Source: Escherichia coli | GTDB taxonomy: Bacteria; Pseudomonadota; Gammaproteobacteria; Enterobacterales; Enterobacteriaceae | DNA: 64,000 nt | Direction: 5' to 3' (one strand) | Assembly: GCF_044324875.1 (NCBI RefSeq) | Contig: NZ_CP172185.1 | Shown here: in pieces, positions 44,501-64,000 of the stretch | Numbering within the stretch: the first letter of the stretch is position 1 | Layout: the number at the start of each line of letters is the position of its first letter | Translations under genes and position numbers: made by a program | The notes under the pieces: generated by a model | The model's database searches: none | Seen by the model: the letters and a program-made list of their open reading frames with translations, nothing else | Told to the model about the DNA's origin: nothing

Positions 44501-45297
44501 ATCTTCTTGCAGTAAAACGAATCTTCCCGACCATGATTAGCGGGCAGGAGCGTCTTGCCTGTATGGATGATGCCGCCAGGCTGCGCGATGCTCTCGGCGT
44601 ACGACTACCAGAGTCACTGCCAGAGATTTATTTGCACCGAGTCAGTTACCCGCTTCGCGACCTCTTTCTGCGCTATCTCCGGGCTCATGCTCTGGTCACG
44701 TCTGAACAACTGGCTCATGAGTTTAGTCTCGGTACTGCCATTGTCGAAGAGCAACTTCAGCAACTGCGCGAACAGGGGCTGGTGATGAATCTGCAACAAG
44801 ACATCTGGGTGAGCGATGAAGTATTTCGTCGTCTGCGTTTGCGCTCGCTGCAAGCCGCCAGAGAAGCGACACGTCCCGTTGCGGCCACGACCTATGCGCG
44901 ATTGCTGCTGGAACGTCAGGGCGTATTACCCGCCACCGATGGTAGCCCGGCACTCTTTGCCTCAACATCGCCAGGCGTTTATGAGGGCGTGGATGGCGTG
45001 ATGCGGGTGATCGAACAGCTTGCTGGCGTTGGTTTACCCGCCTCACTCTGGGAAAGCCAGATCCTGCCTGCCCGCGTACGCGACTATTCGCCAGAAATGC
45101 TCGATGAATTACTGGCAACCGGTGCGGTTATCTGGTCGGGGCAAAAAAAGCTGGGTGAAGATGACGGTCTGGTGGCACTGCATCTACAGGAATATGCCGC
45201 AGAATCGTTCACTCCCGCCGAAGCAGATCAGGCGAATCGTTCGGCGCTGCAGCAAGCGATAATCGCTGTTCTGGCTGACGGAGGTGATCAGACATGA
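41584..45297 (+). pseudogene. lhr: ATP-dependent helicase Lhr, inactivated by an in-frame TAA at 43030-43032 and a 3' truncation at the prophage junction
   Basis: ORFs 41584..43032 and 43099..45297 are in the same frame and separated only by TAA; helicase motifs GSGKT and DEVH lie in the first part. The combined length is about 1237 codons against about 1538 expected. Confidence 0.8.
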
Positions 45298-45480
45298 GAT
45301 AAATGAAGGGGGATCCGTGAGATAAATAACGAATTGGAGTGGGTTAACATGGGTTCTGGTGAACAGAACTGAAATTCTTTTCCGCTATACGATAGATAAG
45401 TCGGGCATTGAAATCATCCTTCCTGGCAACTTAGAATCGAGTTTGCTGAAACATGACCCGCAACAAAAAGGATGATTCCA

Positions 45481-45642
45481 ATGACTACTCAAAACAATAA
45501 GCATGATAGCCTGGATTACTCAGAAAAGCCCAAAAGCAAGCACATCGTGACGTTCGAGCGCGATTCCGGTAGAAAAGGAGAATCGTCTTCCTCTGCCAAT
45601 AAAACCACTATGCCGGCAGCCCCTGCCCCAGGGAAAAAATAA
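45481..45642 (+). CDS. Possible small hydrophilic protein (53 aa) at prophage end
   Basis: ATG with AAGGA SD 6 bp upstream; MTTQNNKHDSLDYSEKPKSKHIVTFERDSGRKGESSSSANKTTMPAAPAPGKK. Convergent with the next gene with only 3 bp between stops, so uncertain. Confidence 0.25.
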   Translation: MTTQNNKHDSLDYSEKPKSKHIVTFERDSGRKGESSSSANKTTMPAAPAPGKK

Positions 45643-45645
45643 ACA

Positions 45646-46278
45646 TCATTCATCGTTCGTTGCACGAACGCGCCTGATCTCCACTCTGGCAATCTGATCT
45701 GCTGGAATATAGGTTGCCAGAGCTCCCCAGTACTTATCAACCACGCCTTTATACTCTTCCCATTCGTTACTGCCTGAAGGGCTGCTGTGCGTGACGTAAA
45801 GAACCATATCGCCTTTATTCCCCAGGGTAAACGGACCGTTAGGCCACTCTTCAAAGTTCCCTGGCAGCCGTGACATCATACCGGAACCATCGCGAAGAAT
45901 CACTCTGACCTCGGTAACGCTGAAGCCTGTTTGATCAAACATTGCCTGCCATGCTGAGCTGGTATCGTCAGACCATGAAATATCATTATTCCACAGTAAT
46001 CTGTACATCCATTTGCGACCGTACCTGCGCCACCACGCACCGCATGTAACGGCACACAGAAGTGCTGGTGGTGTTGCCAGCCAGGCATTCAGACCTGCCC
46101 ACATAACAGCCTGGTAAGCCATCATTGCTGTCAGGCCAAAAATCAGCGAAGAAAAAGTCACCTCAATGGGCTTGTGGTGATCCTTCAGTCCCACATTCGC
46201 AATAAAATACCCAATATAGCCACTGGTCAGGGTCACCAGTGTTGCCCATGGCAGATTTAACAACGAAACGTCAAACAT
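45646..46278 (-). CDS. Prophage terminal membrane protein of unknown function (3 predicted TM helices plus about 120-aa soluble domain)
   Basis: Start chosen at MFDVSLLNLPW..., which has a GGGAGA SD; lies downstream of a terminator that follows mor. Confidence 0.6.
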   Translation of the reverse strand: MFDVSLLNLPWATLVTLTSGYIGYFIANVGLKDHHKPIEVTFSSLIFGLTAMMAYQAVMWAGLNAWLATPPALLCAVTCGAWWRRYGRKWMYRLLWNNDISWSDDTSSAWQAMFDQTGFSVTEVRVILRDGSGMMSRLPGNFEEWPNGPFTLGNKGDMVLYVTHSSPSGSNEWEEYKGVVDKYWGALATYIPADQIARVEIRRVRATNDE

Positions 46279-46313
46279 ATTTTCTCCCTGCATCCTGAAT
46301 ACTAAAGAGAGAG

Positions 46314-46349
46314 CATAAAAAAAGCACGGTAAGGGGTCTACCGTGCTTT
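46314..46349 (-). terminator. Rho-independent terminator after mor
   Basis: On the minus strand: GCACGGTA-GACCCCTT-ACCGTGC followed by TTTTTTT. Confidence 0.6.
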
Positions 46350-46392
46350 TATACAATAAGGAGATTTTTGAAAGGACTTTAACAAGCAGGAA

Positions 46393-46791
46393 TTATCTGG
46401 ATTTGTTAACGTCTTTCGTCTCCTCTGGCAGATCTTCATCAAACAACCTGCCCTGCATCCGATCCAGTTCTTCTTTTCTGACCCGCTTAACCACGCTGTA
46501 GACCCACTGAAGCGAAACACCAAACTTGCGGGCCAGTTCGTGGTGGTTGCGTCCGTTAAACTCCCTGAAGATTTCCCGGTCGCGCTGACTGACCTTCCAT
46601 ACCATGCCCATCGGGAAATAAACGTTTTGCCCGCCCCAGACCTGCATCATTCGGTTCGCGACGGCCTGACCAATCTGGTCGGCAATTGCGGGCTCAATAT
46701 CAATAATCTCGCGAACGGTCTCAGAGGTATGCTGTGCCAGCTCCACCAGGAGTTCCGGCCCTTTACTTCGAAACTGATTCAGGTCGCTCAT
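46393..46791 (-). CDS. mor: Mor/C-family transcription activator (Mu middle operon regulator-like)
   Basis: 132 aa with C-terminal HTH (ELARKFGVSLQWVYSVVKR) typical of Mor; last gene of the early operon, after gemA, as in Mu. Confidence 0.75.
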   Translation of the reverse strand: MSDLNQFRSKGPELLVELAQHTSETVREIIDIEPAIADQIGQAVANRMMQVWGGQNVYFPMGMVWKVSQRDREIFREFNGRNHHELARKFGVSLQWVYSVVKRVRKEELDRMQGRLFDEDLPEETKDVNKSR

Positions 46792-47215
46792 GTTTTACTC
46801 CCGCAGCTCTGTGCTGCCACTTCTTCAGTTTCTCAATAACACTGCTTGCCTGTTCAGTATTGAGCCAGCGCAGGGCGCTGATGCCCGTTTCCCGCTTGAT
46901 CCACCGCGCTAATGCATTTTCTGAACGGTCACGAACAATGCCGGCAGCAGCCATTTCAAGCCATAGCGCACGGATTTTCCTGGACTGCGGATGGTTATCC
47001 AGCGGTAAACCGGAGCTGGCTTTTCCGGCAGGCTTAACGCGAAAGCCTTTCCTTTTCATGGATTCCAGCACGCAGTTTAGTTGTGTGGTATCCATTCCTT
47101 TGGTTGAGGCTTTACCGGTCAGCCCCTGTAACATCTGGCGATAGGTGTCTTCATCCATACCCAGTTCATTACGGGCAATATGAATGAGCTGGATAAGACG
47201 TTGTTTAGTCATCAT
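46763..47215 (-). CDS. gemA: GemA-like phage regulatory protein (Mu gp16 family)
   Basis: Core RLIQLIHIARNELGMDEDTYRQML...SRKIRALWLE resembles Mu GemA; start placed at internal Met. Confidence 0.7.
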   Translation of the reverse strand: MMTKQRLIQLIHIARNELGMDEDTYRQMLQGLTGKASTKGMDTTQLNCVLESMKRKGFRVKPAGKASSGLPLDNHPQSRKIRALWLEMAAAGIVRDRSENALARWIKRETGISALRWLNTEQASSVIEKLKKWQHRAAGVKHERPESVSK

Positions 47216-47420
47216 CGTTGCTCCTTTTACCTGCGCCACCGATATAATCGACATATAAAGGAAGCGCCACAGGCCAGCACAGGAACATCACCGACCAGCT
47301 AATCCAGTAGCCGGCACCACTGTAACGTGAATAAAACCCTGAACGGCGGTGCAGTTCAGCAGTACACCAACCGACAAAACAATACCAGAACAGGGCACAT
47401 ACAACAGATTCAGCCGTCAT
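47205..47420 (-). CDS. Small phage membrane protein, hypothetical
   Basis: Hydrophobic 71-aa product from internal Met (MTAESVVCALFWYCFVGW...); the longer upstream extension overlaps the neighbouring gene. Confidence 0.4.
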   Translation of the reverse strand: MTAESVVCALFWYCFVGWCTAELHRRSGFYSRYSGAGYWISWSVMFLCWPVALPLYVDYIGGAGKRSNDDD

Positions 47421-47640
47421 TCTGAATATCCCCCCAACTGATATGAATATTACGGGCAGCAATGACAGGGTCGTTATTCCACCATGCACCTGACATGTAT
47501 TTTTCAACCTGTTCGCGTCCGGCAATAACACCAATTGTGATCCCCGGCCTGACGTTCTTAAAAAAGGCGCGGGCAAAAAGGTATCTGGCAGATATTCGGC
47601 AGGCTTTTAATTTCCGGCTGTTACCTGATAGCGTAATCAT
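47410..47640 (-). CDS. Hypothetical phage early protein
   Basis: 76-aa ORF in an operon-like tandem with overlapping stop/start. Confidence 0.4.
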   Translation of the reverse strand: MITLSGNSRKLKACRISARYLFARAFFKNVRPGITIGVIAGREQVEKYMSGAWWNNDPVIAARNIHISWGDIQNDG

Positions 47641-48320
47641 CTGGCCTCCAGTTTCTGTTGTTCCTGCCCACTGACCGGGCGGTGCAGTCTGACGTTCTGC
47701 CCTTCACGAAACCCCGCATAGCGCGAGGCGTCGCCATTGCGGCTTCTTCCCGGTTTACGCGCCCTGGTGGTTTGCGTCTGCGGGTATTTATGTTCCAGCC
47801 ACTGCTGCATCAGTTCACGCTCATCATCGGTCAGGGCAAAGGACTGTATTTCACTGATAACGGCCAGCACCCAGCCTTCGGCAAACTGGTCTCCACGGCT
47901 GGTGCGGGTGGCGGTTTTTATTCTTTTGTTCTGTGCACTGATATACTGCTGACGCGCCTTTTTCAGCTGACGGGCCAGCACTTCCCAGGTGTATGCAGCC
48001 AGTGCCGCACGTTCCCGGTTGCCGTAGAACCCCACAGACGGATGCGTGCCGGGGTGAATGATGGAGTTAACACCAAATACCTCGCGGATGATGTTCATCA
48101 GGCCTGGCATGTAGCGCGGTGGACGGAGACTGCCTGTCGGCCAGTAGTGACTGATGGTTTCATCAATATCACTCATAGCAATGTCGGAATGTGTGATGCC
48201 GTGAACATCCATCAGTTTACGGGCTCGGCGCAGTGCCAGAGCGGCCTCGTGCGGGTTGCCGGATGCGGCCAGCGCCAGCAACTTTTTCAGTTTCTCAATG
48301 TGTTTATTCTGGTCTGTCAT
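47637..48320 (-). CDS. Hypothetical phage early protein
   Basis: Charged, protein-like composition; start placed at an internal Met to avoid overlap with the upstream gene. Confidence 0.5.
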   Translation of the reverse strand: MTDQNKHIEKLKKLLALAASGNPHEAALALRRARKLMDVHGITHSDIAMSDIDETISHYWPTGSLRPPRYMPGLMNIIREVFGVNSIIHPGTHPSVGFYGNRERAALAAYTWEVLARQLKKARQQYISAQNKRIKTATRTSRGDQFAEGWVLAVISEIQSFALTDDERELMQQWLEHKYPQTQTTRARKPGRSRNGDASRYAGFREGQNVRLHRPVSGQEQQKLEAR

Positions 48321-48532
48321 TGTTCTGTATCTCCGGTATTTTTCTGCCGTTTCCATGCCCGGACAGCGTCGGACAGCTCTTTCAGGCTGTATGCTGCTTT
48401 AAGCTTTTCCCATAACCACTGTGTTGTTATGTGCATCAGCAGGGCAGCCAGGGCTGCCCCCGCACTGAGGCATGTCGCCAGGCCAGTAAGAATCAGTATC
48501 CATGCGGTGATTTCCCTGAGTATGTCAGCCAT
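48317..48532 (-). CDS. Hypothetical small phage membrane protein
   Basis: 71 aa with one hydrophobic helix. Confidence 0.45.
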   Translation of the reverse strand: MADILREITAWILILTGLATCLSAGAALAALLMHITTQWLWEKLKAAYSLKELSDAVRAWKRQKNTGDTEQ

Positions 48533-48546
48533 TGAATGCCTCCCGG

Positions 48547-48843
48547 TTACTCGTTCGTGTAAATCACGCCCAGTCGTGCAGCCAGACGTTCCAGTTTTTT
48601 CTGTTTGTGGAAGTCAATCAGCCGGTCCATCCCCTGAAGGCGCAATTGCTCTGTCATGATTTCCACGTCTGCCAGCTCTGCCGCGAGGTCGCTTTCGCTG
48701 CCCTGTCCGTTCAGATTGCGGGCAGCACTGGCCGCCAGTTCAGCGGCCTCTTCTGTCAGTTTCAGGGCCTGTGCGTCCGGCCCGAAACGCTGCAGGGCCA
48801 GACGGTAGAGGGCGGTGCGGGTGAGTATGGTGTTCCGTGTCAT
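48547..48843 (-). CDS. Hypothetical phage early protein
   Basis: 98-aa ORF in the early operon. Confidence 0.5.
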   Translation of the reverse strand: MTRNTILTRTALYRLALQRFGPDAQALKLTEEAAELAASAARNLNGQGSESDLAAELADVEIMTEQLRLQGMDRLIDFHKQKKLERLAARLGVIYTNE

Positions 48844-48852
48844 GCCGCGCCC

Positions 48853-49125
48853 TCAGTGCTTCCGGCTGACGGTGATGTGCAGGCCGCCTTCTGCAGTGGT
48901 TTCCATCCGGTACGGCACCTCATGCTCTGCCGTGTGGGTGAGTGTGTTCATCAGTACCTGCAGGGCAGCCGCCTTTCCGTTGGTTGCCACAATGGCCTGT
49001 GTGGTCATGCTGATTAGCGCCGTCAGGACGTGCTTCACATCGGTGAGGTCGCGGCATTCACACTCGTTGACATAGTGTTCAACAAGGGTTCGGGTGCGCT
49101 GTCGTGCTTCCTGTGGGGTAATCAT
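48853..49125 (-). CDS. Hypothetical phage early protein
   Basis: 90-aa ORF. Confidence 0.5.
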   Translation of the reverse strand: MITPQEARQRTRTLVEHYVNECECRDLTDVKHVLTALISMTTQAIVATNGKAAALQVLMNTLTHTAEHEVPYRMETTAEGGLHITVSRKH

Positions 49126-49316
49126 TGCGAGTCCTCCCTGTCAGGGCGGGAGAATTCCATGACGGGCACGTCTGCCGAAAAATGCTGGCTGCAGTACGGG
49201 CAGACCAGGGTGACGCGTACCGCAGGGATGTGGTATTTACCGGACATCACGGCGATGGCGCTGTGAAAACGCAGGGCTGTTATATCCCTCTCGCACTGAA
49301 TACATTTAAATATCAT
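49122..49316 (-). CDS. Small zinc-ribbon-like phage protein
   Basis: 64 aa with two CxxC pairs (CIQC ... CPYC). Confidence 0.45.
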   Translation of the reverse strand: MIFKCIQCERDITALRFHSAIAVMSGKYHIPAVRVTLVCPYCSQHFSADVPVMEFSRPDREDSQ

Positions 49317-49413
49317 GATTTAATTCTCCTCTGTTTCCGGCGTGCAGAAGCCCGCGGCGCTGACGCCGGAATAAAAAAGAAAATGTTTTTATTAAATAAT
49401 TAACGTGGTGTGT

Positions 49414-49944
49414 TTACTGCACATCCTGCTCAAAAGGAATTATTGAAAAATCCTCAATGTCGCTTTTAATGGAAATACCGGGAATATTTTTCACGGCCTC
49501 TTTTTCATTCAGGATAGCGTCTTTATTTATTTCCTCTTTTACACGAATAAAGCGCTCAAGCCCCAGACGTCTCAGTAATTCAATAACATTATCCGCCCCA
49601 CGGATACTGACTGATGGCGGACGGTTTCGCCACTGCACCTCGCCGGTGGTAAGGTTAGCGAACTTCACCTTCCCGTTGCCGGTCAGTTCATCACGGTGCG
49701 CCTCACACCATGTCTGGATACCGGACTGCAGTTCGGCCATGCGTTTTTTCAGGCTCTCGGTGAGCGGGGCATAACGTGCGGTGATATCGCCAATGGCGTC
49801 ATTCATTTCTGTTTCAGCCCTGACCAGTTCACGTTGTGCGTCACCGAGTAGTCTGATTCCCTCAATGACCTCTTCGCGTGTCCCTGGTACCCAGAGTGCC
49901 GCTGCGGCCTTGATACGTTTTGCCCCTTTTGTACTTTTTGCCAT
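49414..49944 (-). CDS. gam: Host-nuclease inhibitor protein Gam (Mu Gam family)
   Basis: 176 aa; MAKSTKGAKRIKAAAALWVP...LETEMNDAI...DFSIIPFEQ matches my recollection of Mu Gam along its whole length. Confidence 0.9.
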   Translation of the reverse strand: MAKSTKGAKRIKAAAALWVPGTREEVIEGIRLLGDAQRELVRAETEMNDAIGDITARYAPLTESLKKRMAELQSGIQTWCEAHRDELTGNGKVKFANLTTGEVQWRNRPPSVSIRGADNVIELLRRLGLERFIRVKEEINKDAILNEKEAVKNIPGISIKSDIEDFSIIPFEQDVQ

Positions 49945-49971
49945 ATTTTATGATTTCTCCGGTTGTGCTGA

Positions 49972-50241
49972 TTACCACAAAGATTCCGGCCACACGACGC
50001 GACAGCCGTGCAGTTCGAAAACGCCCTGACGGAAATATCCCCTGTGGTCATGTCCGGTATACAGATAACAGGCCTTTCCCTGCTCAAGCATGCGCATGCA
50101 ATGCGCACTCCGGGAAACGCGGATGACAGGTTTGTTACCCCTGATGGTGATGCTTTGTACATCCGTGTTCGTCGCCTTAAGCGCCATAATGGCTGACTGC
50201 ACTTTGCTGATTTGCTGGTTGATACCTGTGGTGGATTTCAT
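49972..50241 (-). CDS. Hypothetical phage early protein (position of Mu kil)
   Basis: 89-aa ORF directly downstream of the B-like gene. Confidence 0.45.
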   Translation of the reverse strand: MKSTTGINQQISKVQSAIMALKATNTDVQSITIRGNKPVIRVSRSAHCMRMLEQGKACYLYTGHDHRGYFRQGVFELHGCRVVWPESLW

Positions 50242-50243
50242 TA

Positions 50244-51437
50244 TTAAACTCCTTTGACAACGTCAGCGTTGACCTGTGGAACCCCGATTTCAGCGGCCAG
50301 ATTCATGGCGGCTATTACCAGGTTACTGACGGCCAGCGGATACAGCAGGCTGACCATATTTTTACGATGACTTCCCGGATTGCTCAGGCGGGCACGTATG
50401 GCATCCACTGCGCTGGCGTCCATAATGTCCGTCAGTTGTTTACCGGCCCGTTGCAGTTTGAACGTCAGAAATTCTTCAAGGTTATTGTCCAGAGGCAGAA
50501 GTTCGACCACCTCACAGCGCTGAACGACTTCACGGACTTCCATATTGCGTTCAGACAGTTTTGTCGCCAGTTCCGGCTGGCCAATCAGCACGATGGACAG
50601 CAGTTTTTTGAAACCGGACTCCAGCTCAAAAAAGCGTTTGAGGTGTTTCAGTGTCGGAATGGGCAGACTGTGGGCCTCCTCAATCACCAGAACGTGGCTG
50701 AACCCCGCCTGGCTGCTGTCTTTCAGGACGCGATGCAACTGGCGAAAGCGGGCGTCCTGACTGCGTCTGATGCTTTCCAGTGGTGCGATGGTACTGATAA
50801 TGGCTTCGGCAATAGCTGCTGCCTTCAGGGTTTTCCCTTTCACATCGTTGTCTTCCATAGCGATGATGTATGGCTCGATAACAATTACCGGCGCATTCTC
50901 GCGGTTAATACGTTCAGTCAGGTCGCGGCGCAGCGTGGATTTACCCGCACCGGACTCACCGATGACGGCCATAAACCCACCATGACGGGCTGTCTGGTAC
51001 AGCGCCTCACGCACGTAGCGAATGTCCGGGGTGGTGAACACATCATCAGAACCCTGCATGGCTTCATCGGCGAACGGGTCACGGAAAAGACCAAACGCTT
51101 TTTTGGTTGCTGGAAATAACACCTGTTTTTTGAGTAACATATTCTCTTCCTCACTGAGGCTCGTTTTATCTGTGGTACCCGCTGTACGGGGCGTGGCCGC
51201 GCCCTGTACAGCATCAAAACTCTTCGTTGTATCAATCCCCTGACTTTCCAGCCAGGACGCAAGACGCCGGCGCACTTCTCCGGGGCTGGTGCGGGGCCAC
51301 GCGTTATGATTCACAATCTGGGCCAGCGTGGCCTCAGAAACATCGACAGCTCTCGCCGCCACCGCCTGTGGAATACGGGCCTCTTTCAGTTGCTGCTTCA
51401 GTACCAGCATGTTTCCCTCCTCAGTTGCCGTTAACAA
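50244..51437 (-). CDS. Transposition helper ATPase (MuB-like, AAA+)
   Basis: 397 aa; N-terminal HTH-like region then Walker A GESGAGKST and Walker B VLVIEEAH; start overlaps the transposase stop. Confidence 0.8.
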   Translation of the reverse strand: MLTATEEGNMLVLKQQLKEARIPQAVAARAVDVSEATLAQIVNHNAWPRTSPGEVRRRLASWLESQGIDTTKSFDAVQGAATPRTAGTTDKTSLSEEENMLLKKQVLFPATKKAFGLFRDPFADEAMQGSDDVFTTPDIRYVREALYQTARHGGFMAVIGESGAGKSTLRRDLTERINRENAPVIVIEPYIIAMEDNDVKGKTLKAAAIAEAIISTIAPLESIRRSQDARFRQLHRVLKDSSQAGFSHVLVIEEAHSLPIPTLKHLKRFFELESGFKKLLSIVLIGQPELATKLSERNMEVREVVQRCEVVELLPLDNNLEEFLTFKLQRAGKQLTDIMDASAVDAIRARLSNPGSHRKNMVSLLYPLAVSNLVIAAMNLAAEIGVPQVNADVVKGV

Positions 51438-53205: not shown

Positions 53206-53523
53206 TTATCCGATTCTGGCGGCAATTTTTCTGGCACGGTCGCGCAGGGTTTCGCCATCGCAGGTTTTCACCACGTTATTTACCGGTTGCGGCGCAACTG
53301 CCGGGCGCAATGCTGACTGATGCTGCAGACGTCTTATCTGCTGCATCAGCATCACTTCCATCGTCAGTACAAACGGATGCGCCTCCTGTGCGGGTACGCA
53401 GATTTCACCGGAAGGTGTCACCACGCGGAAACCCTGCACCATCTCCGGCAGCAGATTACACAGTGCGTGCCCCAGTGCCTCCGGGCTGTCCATCAGGATA
53501 TTTTGTGTGTTATCCGTGTTCAT
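53206..53523 (-). CDS. Hypothetical phage early protein
   Basis: 105-aa ORF between the Ner-like gene and the transposase. Confidence 0.45.
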   Translation of the reverse strand: MNTDNTQNILMDSPEALGHALCNLLPEMVQGFRVVTPSGEICVPAQEAHPFVLTMEVMLMQQIRRLQHQSALRPAVAPQPVNNVVKTCDGETLRDRARKIAARIG

Positions 53524-54440
53524 TACTGCATGCCCTCCGGTCGGTTGATTTCAGGCTCCGGTTCGGTCAGCCATGCGGGGACATCGTTACCCGATGGTGC
53601 GGCATCAAGGTCGAACGTCTCACGCAATGCATGAACACTGCGTTCAATCTGGCAGACCAGACCGGCCATGAAATCTCTGGGGGTATCAATCATGTTTTTA
53701 CTGCAGTATTCACACAGGGTTTCAAAGGCACCGGAGAGCCGGACGGCGATGGCAGATTCCGCCTCAACCGCTAATGCGGTCACTTCCGCCCGCAGCTTCT
53801 TCACCTCTTCATCAGGCTCAGGCGGTTGAATACGGGATTTCTTCTCCAGTTTTGTGGCCAGTTCGTTGATTTTTTCGTCCTTTCCGGCAAGCACCTGTTG
53901 CTGAGCTGCGTTAGTTTCGCGCGCTTCACGCAGGGCCTGGCGAAGTTCACGTACTGACATGCGATCAACATCATCAAGCGTCAGGCCGGCAACTGTGCCG
54001 CCGTCGGCCAGTTCGGCAAGGTCTTCATCGTCTTCAGCAACAAGTTCAAATAATTTTGCCTTACCCAAAAGCGACAACGTTGTCGCTTTTGGCTCTAGTT
54101 TTGGTGAAAGGTATTTCAAAGATGCTTTCATCATTCGTTGTGCTGCGCGCACGTGCAAACCAAGTTGTTCTTCTACAATTCCAACAAAGTCCCCGTGTGG
54201 CTCATTTTCTTTTAAGATGATCAGCCGTTTACCCGCTTCCAGCATAGATTCAGCACTCTGCGCCATATAAAAACGTGCTTCGTGAACGATGCGATCACGT
54301 TCATAAGGCAGTCCATCACCAAACTGCTGCATGATCTCCATGCGATGCTGTGTCATGGCATTCAGGCTGACGTTGAGATCATCCGACAGCGGTACCTCGG
54401 CGTTCAGTTCAGTGTTAACCGGTGATTTGGTGCGTCCCAT
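53523..54440 (-). CDS. Hypothetical acidic, helix-rich phage early protein
   Basis: 305 aa with long charged helical segments; family not recognised. Confidence 0.55.
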   Translation of the reverse strand: MGRTKSPVNTELNAEVPLSDDLNVSLNAMTQHRMEIMQQFGDGLPYERDRIVHEARFYMAQSAESMLEAGKRLIILKENEPHGDFVGIVEEQLGLHVRAAQRMMKASLKYLSPKLEPKATTLSLLGKAKLFELVAEDDEDLAELADGGTVAGLTLDDVDRMSVRELRQALREARETNAAQQQVLAGKDEKINELATKLEKKSRIQPPEPDEEVKKLRAEVTALAVEAESAIAVRLSGAFETLCEYCSKNMIDTPRDFMAGLVCQIERSVHALRETFDLDAAPSGNDVPAWLTEPEPEINRPEGMQ

Positions 54441-55000: not shown

Positions 55001-55100
55001 CGTTGTCTCCTTTGTTGATGCAATGATGTTTGCCTTATGTGTGATAGATTATGGTGCAGATTATCTCACCAGTCAACTTAAAGAGTGCAGAAAAACTCAC
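55001..55100. promoter_or_regulatory. Divergent promoter/operator region between Ner-like gene and repressor
   Basis: 100-bp intergenic region containing GTGATAGATTAT and an inverted copy AGATTATCTCAC. Confidence 0.45.
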
Positions 55101-55524: not shown

Positions 55525-55560
55525 ACCGGAAAGCACTGTACTTTCCGGTTATGGCTTTTA
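55525..55560. terminator. Terminator between repressor and dam
   Basis: Hairpin ACCGGAAAG..CTTTCCGGT followed by a T-rich tract. Confidence 0.45.
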
Positions 55561-56514: not shown

Positions 56515-56730
56515 TTATCCGGGGCGATTTTCTGACCTTATCTGGTCCAGGGCATAAGTGATCCCTTCTGCAAAAACAGAAGTATCAAACTGCTTTTGTA
56601 TTTCCTGAAAATGAACAGTGGCACGACAGACACTCAGTTCTCCGCGATGTAACCGGATAATATCTTCCAGAACATTGTTCACTGCTTCGGCACGGCGCTG
56701 ATGTTCTGTTAACGTTAATCGGGGATTCAT
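56515..56730 (-). CDS. Hypothetical 71-aa phage protein
   Basis: Strong SD AAGGAG 6 bp upstream of ATG; no family recognised. Confidence 0.55.
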   Translation of the reverse strand: MNPRLTLTEHQRRAEAVNNVLEDIIRLHRGELSVCRATVHFQEIQKQFDTSVFAEGITYALDQIRSENRPG

Positions 56731-57107
56731 GATGCACTCCTTAAATGATGATTTTTATGTACTCACCGGCAAAATATTCTGCCGATTACTGAACACGCAT
56801 CCGGCTCCTCAGGTTTTGATTTATTCTGGTTTTTTCGATATCCCGGACCAGGTTGATCACGACAGAAAAAGTGCCGGTATTTTATTGATACGCTGATATG
56901 GCTTCGGGATAACAGCTATATTCGTTACTCTCAGTTGCTGGCTGTGGGAGCGGCTGATGTCGTCCTCACGGAAAAAACGCTCTGTCTGCTCAATGCCATG
57001 CCGACCTTTCTGCAGCCCCGGCCCGTACCATTTAAAGAGTCACTTCTGGATGCAGTAAAAACCGGTGAAAATGCAGTCATCGCTGAATGCGTATCCCGGA
57101 TTATGCG

Positions 57108-57656
57108 TTACGTGTTTAATGAACGTAAGTGAGGTTTATCCGCTGTCTGCATAATCCCGATAGCCAGTGCGAGGGGAAGCAATTCCGGGGAAACTCTTTC
57201 AAACAGCGATTCCCATTCTCCTCTCGCCATCACTCTGTCCAGCCCGCCCTCCAGCTGCATTTCAGCAATCTTCCTGATTTCCCGGAACAACGCCGCTTTG
57301 ATCTCTTCATGCTCAGCTTTATTTTCCGGTGTCAGAATGTATTCGTCGAAGAACCGGGGAGGCTGGTTAACGGGGGGCATGTTCACCGGGATGTGTTCCT
57401 GTATCCCGTACTCCGGGGCTGAAAAACATTTTGTTGTCTGACCGGTGAGTTTGCGTAACACCTTCATGAGTTGCTCCTGAAGCAGCTCATTCGTCCGACA
57501 GATACGCTCGTCGTCCACAACTGCGGCATCGACAATGACGCTTTTTCCAAATTCCTTTTTCACCATCTCTTTTATACGCGTCAGAACGTAACTTTTACCG
57601 CTGCCTACAGGCCCGGACACTCTGACGGTGATGGTCGGCTTCGGTGTGACTGTCAT
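57108..57656 (-). CDS. P-loop NTPase-like protein of unknown function (182 aa)
   Basis: Start at internal ATG with SD AAGGAGA 7 bp upstream; Walker A GPVGSGKS at residues 14-21; divergent from the lysis cassette. Confidence 0.6.
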   Translation of the reverse strand: MTVTPKPTITVRVSGPVGSGKSYVLTRIKEMVKKEFGKSVIVDAAVVDDERICRTNELLQEQLMKVLRKLTGQTTKCFSAPEYGIQEHIPVNMPPVNQPPRFFDEYILTPENKAEHEEIKAALFREIRKIAEMQLEGGLDRVMARGEWESLFERVSPELLPLALAIGIMQTADKPHLRSLNT

Positions 57657-57787
57657 TCTGTATCTCCTTTGTGAGTGATCCAGCGTGTATTCTGCATACC
57701 CCGAACACGCCTCTCTCTTAACGCGCTTTAAAATCCTCCGCGCCACGCTTTTGCCATGCTGTCTCCACACAACAAGGAGACATTTTC

Positions 57788-58138
57788 ATGAAACCATTCA
57801 CTTCCCTTATCGTTGACGTACAAAAAACCCGCCTGCGTGGATGGCTTGTTGCGGCCGTGCTGCTGCTCCTCATCATCGCGCTGGTCTCACCCCAGCAGTT
57901 GCCGGTGGTGGTGTACAAGCTCTCTCTCATCTCCCTCGCCGCCGTGCTCGGCTACTGGCTGGACCGCTCACTCTTCCCGAAGGCCCGTCCGGGGCAGTAC
58001 CTGAAGCATGACGAGCGCCTCATGGCTGAGGGGCGCTGGCCCGTACAGACCGGCCTTCACCTGGTGTTTTCTGCTGCGTTAATCCGCCGTGCACTGATTG
58101 TTGCAGCTGTCTGTCTGGCTGTTGCGATGGGGCTTTAA
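57788..58138 (+). CDS. Putative holin (membrane protein, first late/lysis gene)
   Basis: 116 aa with 2-3 hydrophobic helices; AAGGAGA SD; immediately precedes the endolysin. Confidence 0.55.
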   Translation: MKPFTSLIVDVQKTRLRGWLVAAVLLLLIIALVSPQQLPVVVYKLSLISLAAVLGYWLDRSLFPKARPGQYLKHDERLMAEGRWPVQTGLHLVFSAALIRRALIVAAVCLAVAMGL

Positions 58139-58140
58139 TC

Positions 58141-58875
58141 ATGAACTGGCCACAGAGCACCTGGATTGTATGCATGTCCCTGAAACTGGCTTTCGAAGCC
58201 TTTCTGGTCTTCATCAGAACCGAACGCCTGTCAGTCCGTGTCGGGACCTTTCTGGTTCATATGGCATGGGTATTCTTTGTCGCAATGTTGCTCTGGTGTG
58301 GCGGCTTCTTCAGTCAGGCCCGCGCAGCGCAGCCTCCGCAGGCTGCGCTGCAGTATCGCGATGATGTGATCCGTAATGCCCGGCTTGAATGGGGGCTGTC
58401 TGCGCCGGTGGCCGATTTCGCCGCGCAACTGCATCAGGAAAGCGGCTGGCGGACTGATGCGGTCTCGCCGGTGGGCGCTCAGGGGCTGGCGCAGTTTATG
58501 CCCGCCACCGCTGACTGGATAAGCCAGTTGATGCCGGCGTTGAGCAGTCGTGAGCCGTTTAATCCGGCATGGGCCATCCGGGCGCTGGTCAGCTATGACC
58601 GCTGGCTGTGGCAGCGCATCAGCGCCGCCAGTGACTGCGAGCGTATGGCCATGACACTGTCGGGCTATAACGGTGGTCTGGGTTGGGTACAACGGGACAG
58701 GCGGCTCGCATCACAGAAAGGTCTGGACAGCACCCGCTGGTTCGGACATGTCGCCACGGTGAATGCCGGACGCAATGCTGCCAGCTGGCGGGAGAACCGC
58801 CATTATCCGCAGCGCATCCTGCACGAACTGGCCCCCCGTTATCTGACATGGGGGGGCGGCAGCTGTGTGGACTAA
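58141..58875 (+). CDS. Endolysin, lytic transglycosylase (SLT domain), possibly signal-anchored
   Basis: QLHQESGWRTDAVSPVGAQGLAQFMP matches the SLT catalytic E-S...GLxQ motif; hydrophobic N-terminal segment. Start codon uncertain. Confidence 0.75.
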   Translation: MNWPQSTWIVCMSLKLAFEAFLVFIRTERLSVRVGTFLVHMAWVFFVAMLLWCGGFFSQARAAQPPQAALQYRDDVIRNARLEWGLSAPVADFAAQLHQESGWRTDAVSPVGAQGLAQFMPATADWISQLMPALSSREPFNPAWAIRALVSYDRWLWQRISAASDCERMAMTLSGYNGGLGWVQRDRRLASQKGLDSTRWFGHVATVNAGRNAASWRENRHYPQRILHELAPRYLTWGGGSCVD

Positions 58876-59167
58876 CCTGCTAAAAAATCTGCCGTGGCGC
58901 AGTCTGCTGCTGGCAGTGCTCATAAATGCTTTTCTGATTGGACTTTATTACCTGGGCTACAAAAGTGCAAAATGGCATCTGAATCGATCGCAGTTTGGCA
59001 TTCGAATCGATCATGATTTGGCATCCATCTCCGATCACAGTTTGGCATCACAATCGATCACGATTTGGCATGCTTCCGATCATTGATTGGCATCCTGCCA
59101 GTCACTCCGGGAATTAACTCTTTTCACCACAGTCTCCATTGCCGTGTTTAAACCAGTGGAGACGTCA

Positions 59168-60733
59168 ATGTCCAGAAAGAGAAAATCCAGGAGCACTATG
59201 GAAACCTGTTTTAAGATCCTTCAGCTCAAGTTCGACAAGAAGCTGACTAACCGTTGTATCGGACTGACGTTACACATCAGCGCCTCAACCGTTTTTGAGG
59301 TTCTTGCCCGCTTCAAAGCCTCTTCTCTGTCATGGCCATTACCTGCTGATATATCCCATGACACGCTGGAGAAACTCATTTTTCCGCCCAAAGACACCTT
59401 TGCATCAGAGCTTGTAATGCCTGACATGTTGTACTTCGATACGGAAATGAGAAAACCAGGTGTGACGCGGCAACTGTTGTGGATGGAATACAAGGCACAG
59501 GCGGGTAACAAAGCGATGGGATACTCGCACTTCTGCCGTTGCTACCGGGAGTGGAAAAAAACGCGACGTCTCTCCATGCGCCAGGAGCATCGTGCCGGCG
59601 AAAAGCTTTTTATCGACTTCTGTGGTCCTACGGTTCCTGTTATTAATCCGGACACCGGTGAGATACGCCGCGTGGCAATCTTCGTGGCCGTAATGGGGGC
59701 GTCCAACTATACCTACGTTGAAGCGTGCGAAGGTCAGGACATGATGTCATGGTTAAATGCCCACAGCCGTTGCCTGACCTTCCTGGGCGGCGTACCGAAG
59801 CTGCTCATCCCCGATAACCTCAGAAGCGCAGTGAAAAAGGCCGATCGATATGAGCCTGTCATCAACGACAGTTATCAGGCACTGGCTGAGCACTATGGCA
59901 CGGTTATCATCCCGGCCCGACCACGCAAACCTAAAGATAAACCAAAAGCAGAAAACGGCGTCCTCATCGTTGAACGATGGCTTCTTGCCCGCATCCGTAA
60001 TGAAACCTTCCACACGCTCAGGGCGCTGAATGCGCGCCTTAGGGAGTTACTGACAGACATGAATAACCGGCCAATGAAGGGGTACGGCAATCAAACCCGT
60101 GCAGAACGCTTCCGCATACTGGATGCGCCAGCACTCTCTCCGCTGCCTCTGGCACCTTATGAATACACGGAATACAAAGCTGTGAAGGTTGGCCCTGACT
60201 ACCACGTTGAATATGCCCGTCACTGGTACTCCGTTCCACACGAACTGGTCGGTCAGCGTCTGTCACTGAAGGCGGGGCAGTCGGTGGTACAGCTCTGGCA
60301 CAAGGGGCAGTGTGTGGCGCAACATCCGCGCAGCACACATGAATATAAACACACAACCAATCCGCTTCACATGCCAGAGCGCCACCGGCAGCACGGGACA
60401 TGGACACCGGAACGCCTGATCGAGCAGGGAAAACGTACGGGCCCGTCCACAGGCCGGGTGGTTGAATCCATGCTGAAGGCAAAACCCCATCCGGAACTGG
60501 CTTATCGTGCAGTTCTGGGGCTGCTGGCACTTCAGAAAAAATACGGCCCGGAACGGCTGGAAAAGGCCTGTTACGTTGCCCTGCACTATAACGCCCCTGA
60601 CAGACGCTTTATCGACAATCTGCTGCGTCACCATCGGGAGAACCTGGAGCTTCCATTATCCCGCCAGGGCGAACAACATCCGGCATATGCTTCAGAGCAT
60701 GAAAACCTGCGTGGTCCGGGCTACTACCACTGA
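59168..60733 (+). CDS. istA: IS21-family transposase IstA
   Basis: N-terminal HTH, DDE core; alternative start at 59198 (METCF...) has an AGGAG SD. Confidence 0.8.
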   Translation: MSRKRKSRSTMETCFKILQLKFDKKLTNRCIGLTLHISASTVFEVLARFKASSLSWPLPADISHDTLEKLIFPPKDTFASELVMPDMLYFDTEMRKPGVTRQLLWMEYKAQAGNKAMGYSHFCRCYREWKKTRRLSMRQEHRAGEKLFIDFCGPTVPVINPDTGEIRRVAIFVAVMGASNYTYVEACEGQDMMSWLNAHSRCLTFLGGVPKLLIPDNLRSAVKKADRYEPVINDSYQALAEHYGTVIIPARPRKPKDKPKAENGVLIVERWLLARIRNETFHTLRALNARLRELLTDMNNRPMKGYGNQTRAERFRILDAPALSPLPLAPYEYTEYKAVKVGPDYHVEYARHWYSVPHELVGQRLSLKAGQSVVQLWHKGQCVAQHPRSTHEYKHTTNPLHMPERHRQHGTWTPERLIEQGKRTGPSTGRVVESMLKAKPHPELAYRAVLGLLALQKKYGPERLEKACYVALHYNAPDRRFIDNLLRHHRENLELPLSRQGEQHPAYASEHENLRGPGYYH

Positions 60734-60749
60734 CAGAAGGAACAACAGT

Positions 60750-61505
60750 ATGAGTGATAACCTGTTAAACAAACTGACCCAACTGAAACTCCCGGCGATG
60801 GCCGGGAGCCTGATACGGCAGCGGGAAACGCCTCAGACCTACGACGAACTGTCGTTCGAGGAAAGGCTGACGCTGCTGGTTGATGACGAGCTTCTGAGCA
60901 GGGAAAACAGCCGTGTGGCACGGTTGAGAAAAAATGCCGGCCTGAAATACCAGGCAACACCGGAAGGGCTGCGCTATCCGGCCTCAAGAGGTCTGCGGGC
61001 TGAACAGATGAGAGAACTGCTGAACGGCCACTACATAACCCACAGGAAAAACCTGCTGATAACCGGTCCGACAGGATGTGGCAAGAGCTGGATAGCCAAT
61101 GCGCTGGGCGAACAGGCATGTCGACAGAAACACAGCGTCCGGTACTGTAGAACCGGGCGATTACTGGAACAACTGGCTCAGGGACGTGTTGATGGCAGCT
61201 GGCTGAAATATCTGAAACAGTTGCAAAAAATACAGGTTCTAATCCTGGACGATCTGGGGCTGGAACAGTTAAGTAACGCCCAGTGTAATGACCTTCTGGA
61301 GCTCATAGAGGATCGTTACGGACAAAGCAGCACGATAGTGGTAAGCCAGTTCCCGGTAGATAAATGGCATGGTCTGATGGAGAACCCAACAACAGCAGAT
61401 GCCATCCTGGACAGACTGGTACATAACTCACACCGAGTGGTCCTTCAGGGAGAGTCACTGAGGAAAAATCCCCCGGTAGTGGAAAGCAGCGAAAAAACGC
61501 GTTAA
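60750..61505 (+). CDS. istB: IS21-family helper ATPase IstB
   Basis: 251 aa; Walker A GPTGCGKS and Walker B LILDDLG; start at internal ATG (MSDNLLNKLTQLKLPAMAGS). Confidence 0.85.
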   Translation: MSDNLLNKLTQLKLPAMAGSLIRQRETPQTYDELSFEERLTLLVDDELLSRENSRVARLRKNAGLKYQATPEGLRYPASRGLRAEQMRELLNGHYITHRKNLLITGPTGCGKSWIANALGEQACRQKHSVRYCRTGRLLEQLAQGRVDGSWLKYLKQLQKIQVLILDDLGLEQLSNAQCNDLLELIEDRYGQSSTIVVSQFPVDKWHGLMENPTTADAILDRLVHNSHRVVLQGESLRKNPPVVESSEKTR

Positions 61506-61856
61506 AAAGCGGTAGAAAAAGTTAAGTTCCCGGTTGATCGAATGGATGCGAATCGCTGATCGGACTTCGATGCCAATCCGTGATCGAATAGAGCGGAATA
61601 CGCAAAAGCGGGCATGAAAACGCCACGCGCGACGGCGATAAGGCGATCAGTGAGTTGCAGTCAGCATTCGACACATACAAAACGGAGCAGGCAATGCTTG
61701 AGAACGCTGCATTGCGAGCATGGGCAAAACGGTATCAGGAGCAGGTGGCCGCTGGGCAGCAGGCTGAGGCCGGTTATCTTGAGCAGATTGCTCAACTGGA
61801 GAGTCAGAACAAACAACTACAGGGGCAAATTAACGATGTCACACAGCGCTGGATTG

Positions 61857-62123
61857 ATGAAAAAGGTAAGAGCCATCCCATTGAGTGCGTGTTTACTCGC
61901 GGTTTCGTGCGCCAGTACAACGCCGCACTCGGGTATGACAACGCATCCGTCGACACCGGTCATTCAGACTCAGTTGCCGCCACTGGCACCCGCTCTGGCA
62001 CAGCGACCGGGCAACCTGAAACCACTGACACCCGGTTACGCGATTCGGGTGTCTCCCAGCGTGACGTTCTCGCCAACATCATCGACAACGCAGGACAATG
62101 TCGTCGCTGGCGGAACCAGATAA
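61857..62123 (+). CDS. Rz1-like o-spanin lipoprotein, embedded in the +1 frame of Rz
   Basis: MKKVRAIPLSACLLAVSCASTTP (lipobox AVSC) followed by a proline-rich tail; lies entirely within the Rz C-terminal fragment. Confidence 0.65.
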   Translation: MKKVRAIPLSACLLAVSCASTTPHSGMTTHPSTPVIQTQLPPLAPALAQRPGNLKPLTPGYAIRVSPSVTFSPTSSTTQDNVVAGGTR

Positions 62124-62157
62124 ACGCGTTGCTGGATGAACGGGAAGGATTACAGAA

Positions 62158-62484
62158 ATGACACTGCAGGTTGAATTCTGGACGGTGGTGGGCTTTCTCA
62201 TCACCTTCATGAGCTTTGTTGGCGGTATGGCCAAATGGCTGTTCAGTAAAGCGGAGGAACGTCAGGCTGCACGTTTTGCCTCTCTTGAGCAGTCACTGCA
62301 GCAGTCCGCCTCCAGTTGGGGCGAGCTGGAAAAAGAATTGATGCGATTTAAAGCGGATTTACCGCTGAATTATGTCCGTCGCGAGGATTATATCCGTGGC
62401 CAGACAGTCATCGAGGCCAAACTGGACGCGCTTTACAACAAACTGGAAGTGGTACAGCAGTACCGCAATACCGGAGGTCAATAA
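62158..62484 (+). CDS. Hypothetical phage membrane protein
   Basis: 108 aa, N-terminal TM helix; start overlaps Rz stop. Confidence 0.5.
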   Translation: MTLQVEFWTVVGFLITFMSFVGGMAKWLFSKAEERQAARFASLEQSLQQSASSWGELEKELMRFKADLPLNYVRREDYIRGQTVIEAKLDALYNKLEVVQQYRNTGGQ

Positions 62485-62795
62485 TGGTCGATATTACCCG
62501 GGTACGCCGTGAATCCCTGCGCTGGAGTCTGCTGGTTGCCCTTAACAAAACCCGCCCTTACACCGCCAGCGAGACGCTGCTGCTGGAAGTGTCCCGCGCC
62601 ATCTACCCGGACACCACGCAACTGGAACTGCGCCGTGAGCTTGATTACCTGGCAGATCGCAAAATGGTGGAACTGGAGAGGAGACCGTCCGGTGACTGGT
62701 TTGCCGATCTGAGTCGCCTTGGTGTGGATATTGTGGAATACACCGTGGAATGCGGCCCCGGTATTGCCCGCCCGGAAAAATACTGGAGTGAGTGA
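62484..62795 (+). CDS. Hypothetical phage protein
   Basis: 103-aa ORF translationally coupled to its neighbours. Confidence 0.5.
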   Translation: MVDITRVRRESLRWSLLVALNKTRPYTASETLLLEVSRAIYPDTTQLELRRELDYLADRKMVELERRPSGDWFADLSRLGVDIVEYTVECGPGIARPEKYWSE

Positions 62796-63340
62796 TTATG
62801 GGACGTCGCAGCAGCATTGATTCTCTGCCGAAGGAGGTCCGTCGCTGGCTTGAGCGGGCACTGACGGAGAATAATTTCACCGGCTATGCAGAGCTTGAAA
62901 GTCTGTTGAAGGAAAAGGGGTACAGCATCACCCGCTCTTCCCTGCAGCGGTTTGGCTACAAAATGGAGCAGCAACTGGCCCGTGTGCGGGCGGCAACCGA
63001 GGCAGCGCGTCTGCTTGCCCGGGAGGCCGGAGACGATCCTGATGACCGTTCAGCCGGACTGATAACCCTCGTCCAGACCGAAATGACGGATATCCTGATG
63101 CGCCTGCAGGAGTCGCGGGAAAACGACGATCCCTTCGCCCGGGCAAAACTGCTGGCAACGGCTTCAAAAAATATCGCCACACTGACCCGCGCCTCGGTCA
63201 ACCTCAAGCGCTATCAGGCAGAAGTCAGAGAGAGGGTTGAACGTGCTGCCGCTGCCGCCGAGAAAATTGCCCGTAAGGGCGGGCTCTCTGCGGAAGCCGT
63301 ACAGGCACTGCGCCGGGAAATTCTGGGGGTGGCGTCATGA
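62792..63340 (+). CDS. Mu gp27-like protein (putative small terminase subunit)
   Basis: 182 aa; MGRRSSIDSLPKEVRRWLERAL... resembles Mu gp27; directly precedes the large terminase. Confidence 0.7.
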   Translation: MIMGRRSSIDSLPKEVRRWLERALTENNFTGYAELESLLKEKGYSITRSSLQRFGYKMEQQLARVRAATEAARLLAREAGDDPDDRSAGLITLVQTEMTDILMRLQESRENDDPFARAKLLATASKNIATLTRASVNLKRYQAEVRERVERAAAAAEKIARKGGLSAEAVQALRREILGVAS

Positions 63341-64000
63341 CGGAGCTGCCGCCGCACATTCCTGACACCGCGAGTTATGAGACACCGCCGGTTCTGTTGC
63401 CTTACCAGCAGCGCTGGGTGGCAGATACCTCTCCGCTTAAGGTGATGGAAAAGAGCCGTCGTACCGGTATTACATGGGCTGAGGCATCCGATAACGTACT
63501 GACCGCAGCCTCTTCTGCGCCTGCAGGCGGGATGAATGTGTATTACATCGCCTATAACCAGGATATGACCGTCGAATACATTCAGGCGTGTGCGATGTGG
63601 GCGCGGGCATTCAACTATGCGGCCAGTGAAATTGAAGAAGGATTCTGGGAGGAGGACGACGACGATAAACACATCAGGACTTACACCATCAAATTTCCTG
63701 ACTCCGGCTTTCGCATTGTCGCGCTCTCCAGCCGCCCGTCTAACCTGCGTGGCCGTCAGGGTATTATTGTTATCGACGAAGCGGCGTTCCATGAGCAACT
63801 GGACGAACTGCTGAAAGCGGCGCTGGCGATGCTTATCTGGGGGGGCAAGGTACGCGTTATCTCCACCCATGACGGTGACGACAATCCATTCAGTACGCTT
63901 ATCGGAGATATCCGTGCCGGACGTCAGGGAGGCAGCGTACATCGCATCACTTTCCGGGAAGCCGTATCTGAGGGGCTGTTCCAGCGCGTTTGTCTGCGCA
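63337..64000 (+). CDS. Terminase large subunit (5' portion; continues past window end)
   Basis: N-terminus with LPYQQRW motif and ATPase-like region; open to the window end. Confidence 0.8.
   Translation, partial: MTELPPHIPDTASYETPPVLLPYQQRWVADTSPLKVMEKSRRTGITWAEASDNVLTAASSAPAGGMNVYYIAYNQDMTVEYIQACAMWARAFNYAASEIEEGFWEEDDDDKHIRTYTIKFPDSGFRIVALSSRPSNLRGRQGIIVIDEAAFHEQLDELLKAALAMLIWGGKVRVISTHDGDDNPFSTLIGDIRAGRQGGSVHRITFREAVSEGLFQRVCLR

Follow-up and report, generated by a model that had tools for sequence, protein, structure and literature searches.

Gene content of the prophage in lhr

The window analyzed here is a stretch of 64,000 nucleotides of Escherichia coli contig NZ_CP172185.1 (assembly GCF_044324875.1), of which positions 45285 to 64000 (about 18.7 kb) are occupied by a transposable prophage that interrupts the host gene lhr; the window end at 64000 cuts the element. 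The visible part consists of an early operon that runs on the minus strand from 55000 to 45646, a central region with a repressor gene and a Dam-type methylase gene, and late genes that run on the plus strand from 57788. Open reading frames (ORFs) of the window were searched against PHROG, Pfam, NCBIfam, and PADLOC, and the proteins were compared by tblastn (E<=1e-3) with the genomes of Burkholderia phage BcepMu (NC_005882; Summer et al. 2004, J Mol Biol 340:49, as listed in the references of PMC2628397 and PMC7302871) and Mu (NC_000929). With family E values of 1e-33 to 1e-147, the gene content and order are far beyond chance. On the basis of these searches and of the comparisons given below, we predict with high confidence that 45285-64000 belongs to a BcepMu/B3-type transposable myovirus prophage that transposed into lhr, and covers its early arm and the beginning of its late arm.

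The early operon contains the following genes, listed in the order of transcription and followed by a plus-strand ORF of the cargo slot (percentages are amino acid [aa] identities from the tblastn comparison; HTH, helix-turn-helix; PGAP, Prokaryotic Genome Annotation Pipeline).

54812-55000, minus strand: gp16-family HTH protein, 62 aa, first early gene, in the Ner/Cro position; TIGR04111 (BcepMu_gp16), 98 bits (cut-off, 34 bits); phrog_925; BcepMu 46%, Mu no match
54451-54759, minus strand: winged-HTH (IclR-type HTH) regulator, homologue of BcepMu gp12; phrog_1368, 9e-45; Pfam HTH_IclR, 6e-6; BcepMu 33%, Mu no match
53206..54440, minus strand: two conserved early genes, coding for a 105-aa protein and a DUF3102 protein; phrog_5446, phrog_1748
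53523-54440, minus strand: the DUF3102 protein of this pair, homologue of BcepMu gp10; BcepMu 40%, Mu no match
51421-53190, minus strand: DDE (rve) transposase TnpA, 589 aa, BcepMu/B3 type; phrog_310, 8e-147; BcepMu gp9 68% over 98% of its length, Mu A no match
50244-51410, minus strand: B-like transposition ATPase (ExeA/AAA_22), 388/397 aa; phrog_296 "DNA transposition protein", 5e-93; Pfam AAA_22, 1e-19; BcepMu gp8 59%, Mu B no match
49972..50241, minus strand: small early gene, 89 aa, unknown function; phrog_2041
49414-49944, minus strand: Mu Gam-like DNA-end-protection protein; phrog_491, 5e-73; BcepMu no match, Mu 61.5%
47205..49316, minus strand: run of small early genes; PHROG matches and PGAP annotation of identical copies
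48547-48843, minus strand: MazG-like nucleoside triphosphate pyrophosphohydrolase, within this run
47637-48320, minus strand: DUF2786 protein, within this run
46763-47212, minus strand: GemA (Mu gp16 family); phrog_286; PGAP "gp16 family protein"; BcepMu gp2 44%, Mu gp16 36%
46393-46791, minus strand: Mor/C-family late transcription activator, last regulator of the operon; phrog_532, 2e-45; BcepMu gp1 56%, Mu 31%
45646-46278, minus strand: predicted membrane protein, 210 aa, cargo ("moron") between Mor and the prophage end; phrog_12870, unknown function
45472-45642, plus strand: ORF of 56 aa in the cargo slot next to the prophage end; annotated as hypothetical in identical copies

The operon is therefore ordered as gp16-like, winged HTH, DUF3102, 105-aa, transposase, B, Gam, about eight small ORFs, GemA, Mor, and 210-aa cargo, with the B-like ATPase gene directly downstream of the transposase gene. 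The Pfam content of the transposase is the rve core only, with no Mu-specific domains. The 62-aa HTH protein matched the Ner family of Pfam (HTH_35) only below threshold (independent E value, 0.005).

The central region separates the two arms and comprises the following features, of which the promoter and the hairpin are pattern matches from consensus scans.

55048..55076, minus strand: candidate early promoter, TTGACT-17-CATAAT, 10/12 consensus matches
55101-55439, plus strand: XRE-family HTH repressor, 112 aa, divergent from the early operon, analogue of BcepMu gp17; PHROG repressor/regulator families; BcepMu 37%, Mu no match
55525..55549, no strand assigned: terminator-like hairpin (9-bp stem and T-run) between the convergent repressor and Dam genes
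55558-56322, minus strand: DNA adenine methyltransferase (Dam-like orphan methyltransferase); phrog_56, 3.5e-100; PADLOC MTase_II, 1e-112
56515..57656, minus strand: 71-aa ORF and 182-aa P-loop protein, unknown function, divergent from the late operon; phrog_4490, phrog_3787
57108-57656, minus strand: the 182-aa P-loop protein of this pair, with a weak AAA_35/P-loop match

The divergent control region between the gp16-like and repressor genes measures 100 bp, and on its other side the repressor gene converges on the leftward Dam/71-aa/P-loop block (55558-57656). The repressor matched the DicA and RstR repressor families of NCBIfam below threshold, and the PHROG and NCBIfam searches found no S24 peptidase domain in it; control by RecA-mediated self-cleavage is therefore unlikely.

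From 57788 onward, the late genes encode a holin, an SLT endolysin, Rz/Rz1, two small proteins, TerS, and TerL, and the Rz gene is split by an insertion sequence (IS).

57788-58138, plus strand: holin; phrog_1528, 1e-50; BcepMu gp21 58%, Mu no match
58141-58875, plus strand: SLT-type endolysin; phrog_669, 5e-67; BcepMu gp22 61%, Mu no match
58865..58965, plus strand: 5' fragment of an Rz-like i-spanin gene, codons 1-34 (transmembrane segment); the frame enters the IS and stops (compared with the intact 217-aa protein of E. coli Ec1117)
58966..61604, plus strand: ISSso4-like IS21-family element with TG...CA ends; istA at about 59168-60733, istB at about 60750-61505
61605..62161, plus strand: remainder of the Rz-like i-spanin gene (3' part, codons 35-217); phrog_1403 "Rz-like spanin", profile positions 51-212 of 212 only
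61857-62123, plus strand: intact embedded Rz1-like lipoprotein ORF (translation, MKKVRAIPLSACLLAVSC...), untouched by the IS
62158..63340, plus strand: homologues of BcepMu gp25 (44%) and gp26 (56%), and TerS (DUF3486 / Mu gp27 type; BcepMu 53%); phrog_462, phrog_436, phrog_426; Mu no match for all three
63337..64000, plus strand: N-terminal part of TerL, cut by the window end; phrog_2; BcepMu gp28 58%, Mu gp28 58%

Prophage terminus and full-length copies

The junction with the host gene lies at the left of the early operon and has the following features.

41584..45284, plus strand: 5' part of host gene lhr, cut by the prophage at nucleotide (nt) 3701 of 4617; nonsense codon at 43030-43032
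45285..45344, plus strand: early-side terminus ("left" in BcepMu) with two GAGATAAAT repeats (45296-45304 and 45319-45327) that may serve as transposase binding sites

In strain GN25, lhr is intact and the prophage site is empty; GN25 has two mismatches to the window flank 39000-45284 (6,285 nt), and the match stops exactly after 45284. A megablast search of 5,426 complete E. coli genomes, the set to which the frequency and junction results below also refer, showed that phage homology in other E. coli begins at window positions 45282-45285. Since the window leaves the empty lhr of GN25 after 45284 and dozens of other insertions start there, the prophage terminus is placed at 45285 (5'-TGATCAGACATGAGATAAATG..., starting with TGATCAG). 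The same prophage end adjoins kefF, tdh, flgJ, flgA, clbG, mdfA, and other genes elsewhere, different in each genome. The lhr-prophage junction of the window was absent from the 5,426 genomes. Relative to GN25, the nonsense codon in lhr results from a change of TAC to TAA at 43032 (Tyr483 to stop). Because of this stop codon and of the prophage at codon 1234, lhr has been inactivated twice; in the source genome, the prophage thus inactivates a gene that already carries a nonsense codon.

The closest copy of the element, 37,726 bp long, is a prophage of strain Ec1117 of E. coli; it is 99.99% identical to the part of the element visible in the window. Window segments 45285-58965 and 61603-64000 are collinear with it and differ at a single position (56065, in the Dam gene). 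The Ec1117 element carries a full set of head genes and P2-like tail genes. In Ec1117 and in a second strain, MS1494, the two copies in which the far end (...ATCA) was read, the element ends are TGAT...ATCA, and a 6-bp direct repeat lies on either side (ACTAGC in Ec1117; TCCTGT in MS1494). Only the left junction of the window copy is in view, and target duplication was seen in these other copies. The right end of the window copy is predicted to read ...GCGCGGCGCATCA at about 40.4 kb from 45285 (i.e., at about 85,650), followed by CGGAGG and AGCCTGGTTTGC/AGCCTGGTTTGCACAAC, where lhr would resume. The core of A, B, and Gam genes is present in 643 of the 5,426 genomes (about 12%), with 710 of its 711 places being chromosomal.

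These comparisons bear on how the region had first been read. The initial annotation, which was made from the sequence alone, had recognized a prophage at 45295-64000; a prophage end does lie there, and the GN25 comparison moves it 10 bp to the left. The remainder of that span is likewise prophage, except for 58966-61604, which is IS21-family DNA that the annotation had missed. It had offered as an alternative that the region was rearranged; apart from the IS insertion, this is not supported, given the same contiguous layout in the 99.99% identical 37.7-kb prophage, which is bounded by 6-bp duplications in independent genomes. It had also named, as the finding that would overturn it, that the early and late blocks belong to two elements or to an assembly artifact. 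Because the region is collinear with the 37,726-bp, 99.99% identical prophage, which is bounded by a single pair of ends and a single 6-bp duplication, the two blocks form one mobile unit, and the layout is no assembly artifact.

The early-side terminus opens with the palindrome TGATCA (45285-45290), and a second GATC (45311-45314) lies between the terminal repeats. The prophage also codes for its own Dam-type methylase (55558-56322), and it is conceivable that Dam methylation is connected with the recognition of the ends.

In the full-length copies, a segment with a Gin-like recombinase gene and tail-fiber/assembly genes lies at the end of the element, beyond the part seen in the window (positions 3222-6711 of the Ec1117 locus, L004; positions 260-3749 of the MS1494 locus, L006). 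The orientation of this tail-fiber segment is opposite in Ec1117 and MS1494, which indicates an active host-range switch of the Mu G type in the full-length copies.

Relationship to BcepMu, B3, and Mu

The protein identities, the strand layout, and the terminal repeats agree in relating the element to BcepMu. In both phages, Mor-GemA-...-B-A-gp10-gp12-gp16 run leftward with the repressor gene rightward, and holin-SLT-Rz/Rz1-gp25-gp26-TerS-TerL run rightward; the matches agree in order and strand. At both ends of both phages, the first letters are TGA, and G-N-GATAWWT occurs at nt 12-20 and again at nt 35-43 (the far E. coli end being taken from Ec1117). TG...CA termini characterize BcepMu-related elements with the rve core (PMC2628397). 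The E. coli element differs from BcepMu in its early region, where a Mu-type Gam, DUF2786, and further small genes replace BcepMu gp3-gp6, in its leftward Dam/71-aa/P-loop block (rightward gp18-20 in BcepMu), in the 210-aa membrane-protein cargo gene at its end, and, in the window copy, in the IS21-family insertion. The full-length E. coli copies additionally contain the Gin-like invertase and invertible tail-fiber segment, which BcepMu lacks (PMC2628397).

The closest deposited phage is Escherichia phage PhiKM, whose DNA is 94.5% identical over 70% of the region and which NCBI files under Bcepmuvirus. "Klebsiella phage KP12 clone KP12_2" has the same gene map as the E. coli element, and one of its annotation notes names Salmonella Typhi CT18 STY1594, in line with a connection to SalMu-type prophages. 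The Pseudomonas phage B3 group (B3, JBD25) has a transposase that is 56% identical and encoded on the minus strand near the left end; this group is more distant than BcepMu and has another host genus. In B3/BcepMu-group phages, the early operon is inverted relative to Mu and the transposition proteins are different (PMC5977238). The divergent early/late layout is the normal, conserved architecture of the BcepMu/B3 group. The prophage lineage is known and common, of a kind already described, and the element is one of its ordinary members. Earlier reports of Bcepmuvirus prophages concern E. coli of sequence type 131 (ST131; bioRxiv 10.1101/2022.05.07.487787) and phages that were induced from bacteria isolated from the human gut (PMC12629997). 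The importance of these results lies mainly in correct annotation, as the layout is standard for BcepMu/B3-type phages and the lineage occurs in roughly one of eight complete E. coli genomes. The ends (TGAT...ATCA), the paired G-N-GATAAAT sites, and the 6-bp duplication can be used to delimit such prophages automatically.

Likeness to Mu is found at several levels. The element is a transposable phage with the Mu early order regulator-A-B-...-gam-...-gemA-mor; its Gam, GemA, Mor, and TerL are homologous to the Mu proteins (31-61% identical); and it shares with Mu the TG...CA ends, the random insertion, and, in the full-length relatives, a Gin-type invertible tail-fiber segment. In Mu, however, the c gene lies at the extreme left and everything else is co-directional, whereas the early arm of the E. 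coli element is oriented the opposite way; Mu has both Mor and C, whereas the E. coli element has one Mor/C-family gene. Among the window proteins, there were no detectable counterparts of Mu A, B, Ner, and c. Mu target duplications are 5 bp long, compared with the 6 bp measured for the E. coli element.

Most of what the initial annotation had said of gene content and layout agrees with these data. It had described a Mu-like transposable prophage with the order Ner position, transposase, B, Gam, GemA, and Mor, which the ORF and family searches confirm, and an early operon directed toward the prophage end with divergent late genes, which is seen in the ORF map and in the annotation of BcepMu alike. 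The contrast that it drew with Mu (co-directional genes and a repressor at the left end) is correct according to the Mu annotation. Its view that the transposase does not look MuA-like is supported by the rve-only domain content, the lack of a Mu match, and the 68% identity to BcepMu gp9, and the BcepMu-type arrangement that it proposed matches the identities, strands, and terminal repeats described above. Its term "Ner-like" holds for the position of the first early gene and fails as a statement of homology (TIGR04111, 98 bits; HTH_35 below threshold; no Mu tblastn match).

IS21-family insertion in the spanin gene

The 2.6-kb IS interrupts alignments to PhiKM and Ec1117 that are collinear elsewhere and that overlap by 6 bp at the gap, and its target duplication is AAAG (4 bp) or CAAAAG (6 bp), which are indistinguishable. 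It is 99.8-100% identical to copies that PGAP names "IS21-like element ISSso4 family," contains five or six subterminal repeats of about 23 bp, and encodes a phrog_1157 transposase (istA) and a DnaC-like IstB. From istA, istB, the TG...CA ends, the repeats, and a duplication within the 4-8 bp typical of the family, we assign the insert at 58966-61604 to the IS21 family. The junction between IS and prophage was found in none of the 5,426 genomes, and the 64-kb window contains no second copy of the ISSso4-like element. In other E. coli, this element occupies up to 23 places per genome.

The IS splits the Rz gene after codon 34 of 217, parting the membrane anchor from the periplasmic domain, and lengthens the prophage from 37.7 to about 40.4 kb. 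It probably abolishes spanin function and may lower the expression of the downstream terminase genes. Because the split Rz gene directly precedes the terminase genes and a genome packaged by the headful mechanism has gained 2.6 kb, we consider lysis, late expression, or packaging of this prophage to be probably crippled. In Mu, insertions of such size were reportedly found by Bukhari and Taylor in 1975 to make headful packaging lose the distal end. The transposition module looks intact. Since the window copy carries this private insertion in its spanin gene, induction or transposition experiments on the strain may fail for a trivial reason.

Regulatory model and alternative explanations

By homology to Mu, B3, and BcepMu, the XRE-type repressor (55101-55439) would keep the divergent leftward early promoter shut. 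Upon derepression, the early operon would be transcribed toward the near prophage end, yielding the gp16-family HTH protein, the accessory proteins, the transposase, the B-like target-capture ATPase, Gam, GemA, and finally Mor. The transposase is expected to bind the paired G-N-GATAAAT sites just inside the TG...CA termini and to drive replicative transposition with 6-bp target duplications, and Mor would activate the rightward late genes from 57788 onward (lysis, terminase, head, and P2-like tail). We infer this cascade, the assignment of the early promoter, and the functional effects of the IS from gene content and homology.

Several observations weigh against the assignment of the region to a BcepMu/B3-type transposable prophage or narrow what it covers. 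The window reaches coordinate 16073 of the 37726 of the Ec1117 prophage (i.e., about 43% of the phage genome) and includes one end only; the right end, the target duplication, and the head and tail genes of the window copy lie outside it, in the distal 21.6 kb beyond 64000. The many insertion sites and target duplications suggest mobility for the E. coli lineage as a whole, and replicative transposition and inducibility are expected from comparison with relatives only. At the nucleotide level, blastn aligned two segments only with BcepMu (597 and 1,460 nt; 69% identity), which lie in B and A. The same-genus convention of the ICTV for Bcepmuvirus is a genome-wide nucleotide identity of about 70% or more; since the DNA identity is about 69% and is restricted to A and B, placement in Bcepmuvirus in this strict sense is doubtful. 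The family-level kinship to BcepMu is clear.

If the element were a true Mu-type phage (Muvirus) with an inverted early region, or a composite or assembly artifact of two elements, the resemblance of Gam (61.5%), GemA (36%), Mor (31%), and TerL (58%) to Mu proteins and the Mu-like early order (ner position, A, B, gam, gemA, mor) would be readily explained. This explanation is nevertheless extremely improbable, given that the transposase and the B protein are 68% and 59% identical to those of BcepMu and show, like the regulators, no similarity to Mu A, B, Ner, and c, that the same layout recurs in BcepMu, PhiKM, KP12_2, and hundreds of E. coli genomes, and that whole 37.7-kb units have one pair of ends and one 6-bp duplication. 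We rejected membership in Muvirus on the lack of tblastn matches to A, B, Ner, and c, the lack of Mu-specific Pfam domains, and the different layout. The part of the prophage in the window might instead be all that survives of a long-dead remnant, the rest having been deleted. The location of the distal 21.6 kb beyond the window end would allow for this, and there are signs of decay in both the host gene and the prophage (the lhr nonsense codon and the IS insertion). The visible 16 kb of phage DNA, however, is one base off the apparently intact Ec1117 prophage, which argues for recent acquisition without point damage and makes a remnant very unlikely.

Within the BcepMu/B3-type assignment, the consequence of the IS is less certain than the nature of the element. 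The insertion could do no functional harm, in which case the prophage could still be induced in full and would be productive. The early operon is intact, as are the repressor, holin, endolysin, and terminase genes and the Rz1-like ORF; the difference from Ec1117 is one nucleotide. As in Mu, late genes farther downstream may be served by Mor-dependent promoters of their own. Spanins of the lambda Rz/Rz1 type are dispensable for lysis under shear, and shaken laboratory cultures often tolerate the loss of spanins, so that "crippled" denotes a probability; IS polarity and capsid capacity likewise bear on this term and leave it a probability rather than a demonstration. Yet the IS removes the membrane anchor of Rz and separates terS/terL from the lysis promoter region by an additional 2.6 kb that carries two co-oriented genes, and the enlargement from 37.7 to about 40.4 kb could entail the distal-end loss known from Mu packaging. 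We therefore regard a harmless insertion as unlikely and favor the view that this copy of the BcepMu/B3-type prophage is impaired.

A more far-reaching proposal is that the element represents a formally undescribed enterobacterial mosaic, in which a transposition core and ends of the BcepMu type meet a Gam of the Mu type, a Dam/P-loop block of its own, an invertible host-range segment of the Gin type, and a variable cargo slot next to the end, whose gene for the 210-aa protein is a possible new superinfection-exclusion or defense gene, and that the IS hit may have made it a nonlytic, transposition-competent 40-kb element locked in the chromosome. Taken as a whole, we consider this proposal unlikely.

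Cargo slot and database records

The 210-aa membrane protein has about three predicted transmembrane segments and no match in Pfam, NCBIfam, or PADLOC; the 56-aa ORF of the cargo slot is likewise without a Pfam, NCBIfam, or PADLOC family. The PADLOC defense search returned nothing for these two proteins, the DUF2786 protein, or the small early proteins. It called Dam an orphan/type II methyltransferase and gave weak P-loop noise only for the 182-aa protein; on these PADLOC results, defense-system cargo was rejected as an explanation. The content of the slot differs in PhiKM, KP12_2, and BcepMu, and the slot may hold a superinfection-exclusion or defense gene.

The 210-aa protein has a single phage match (29% identity), at the left end of a record labeled Synechococcus phage Ssp-JY41. 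This record belongs, together with Lsp-JY19 and Mae-JY22, to cyanophage-labeled records with BcepMu-type genes; the transposases of Lsp-JY19 and Mae-JY22 are 39-41% identical to that of the window. KP12_2 is filed under Vequintavirinae and has a BcepMu-type map. The records concerned are PP438411, PP438414, PP438431, and OM835952. The host or taxon labels of the cyanophage-labeled deposits and of KP12_2 look doubtful.

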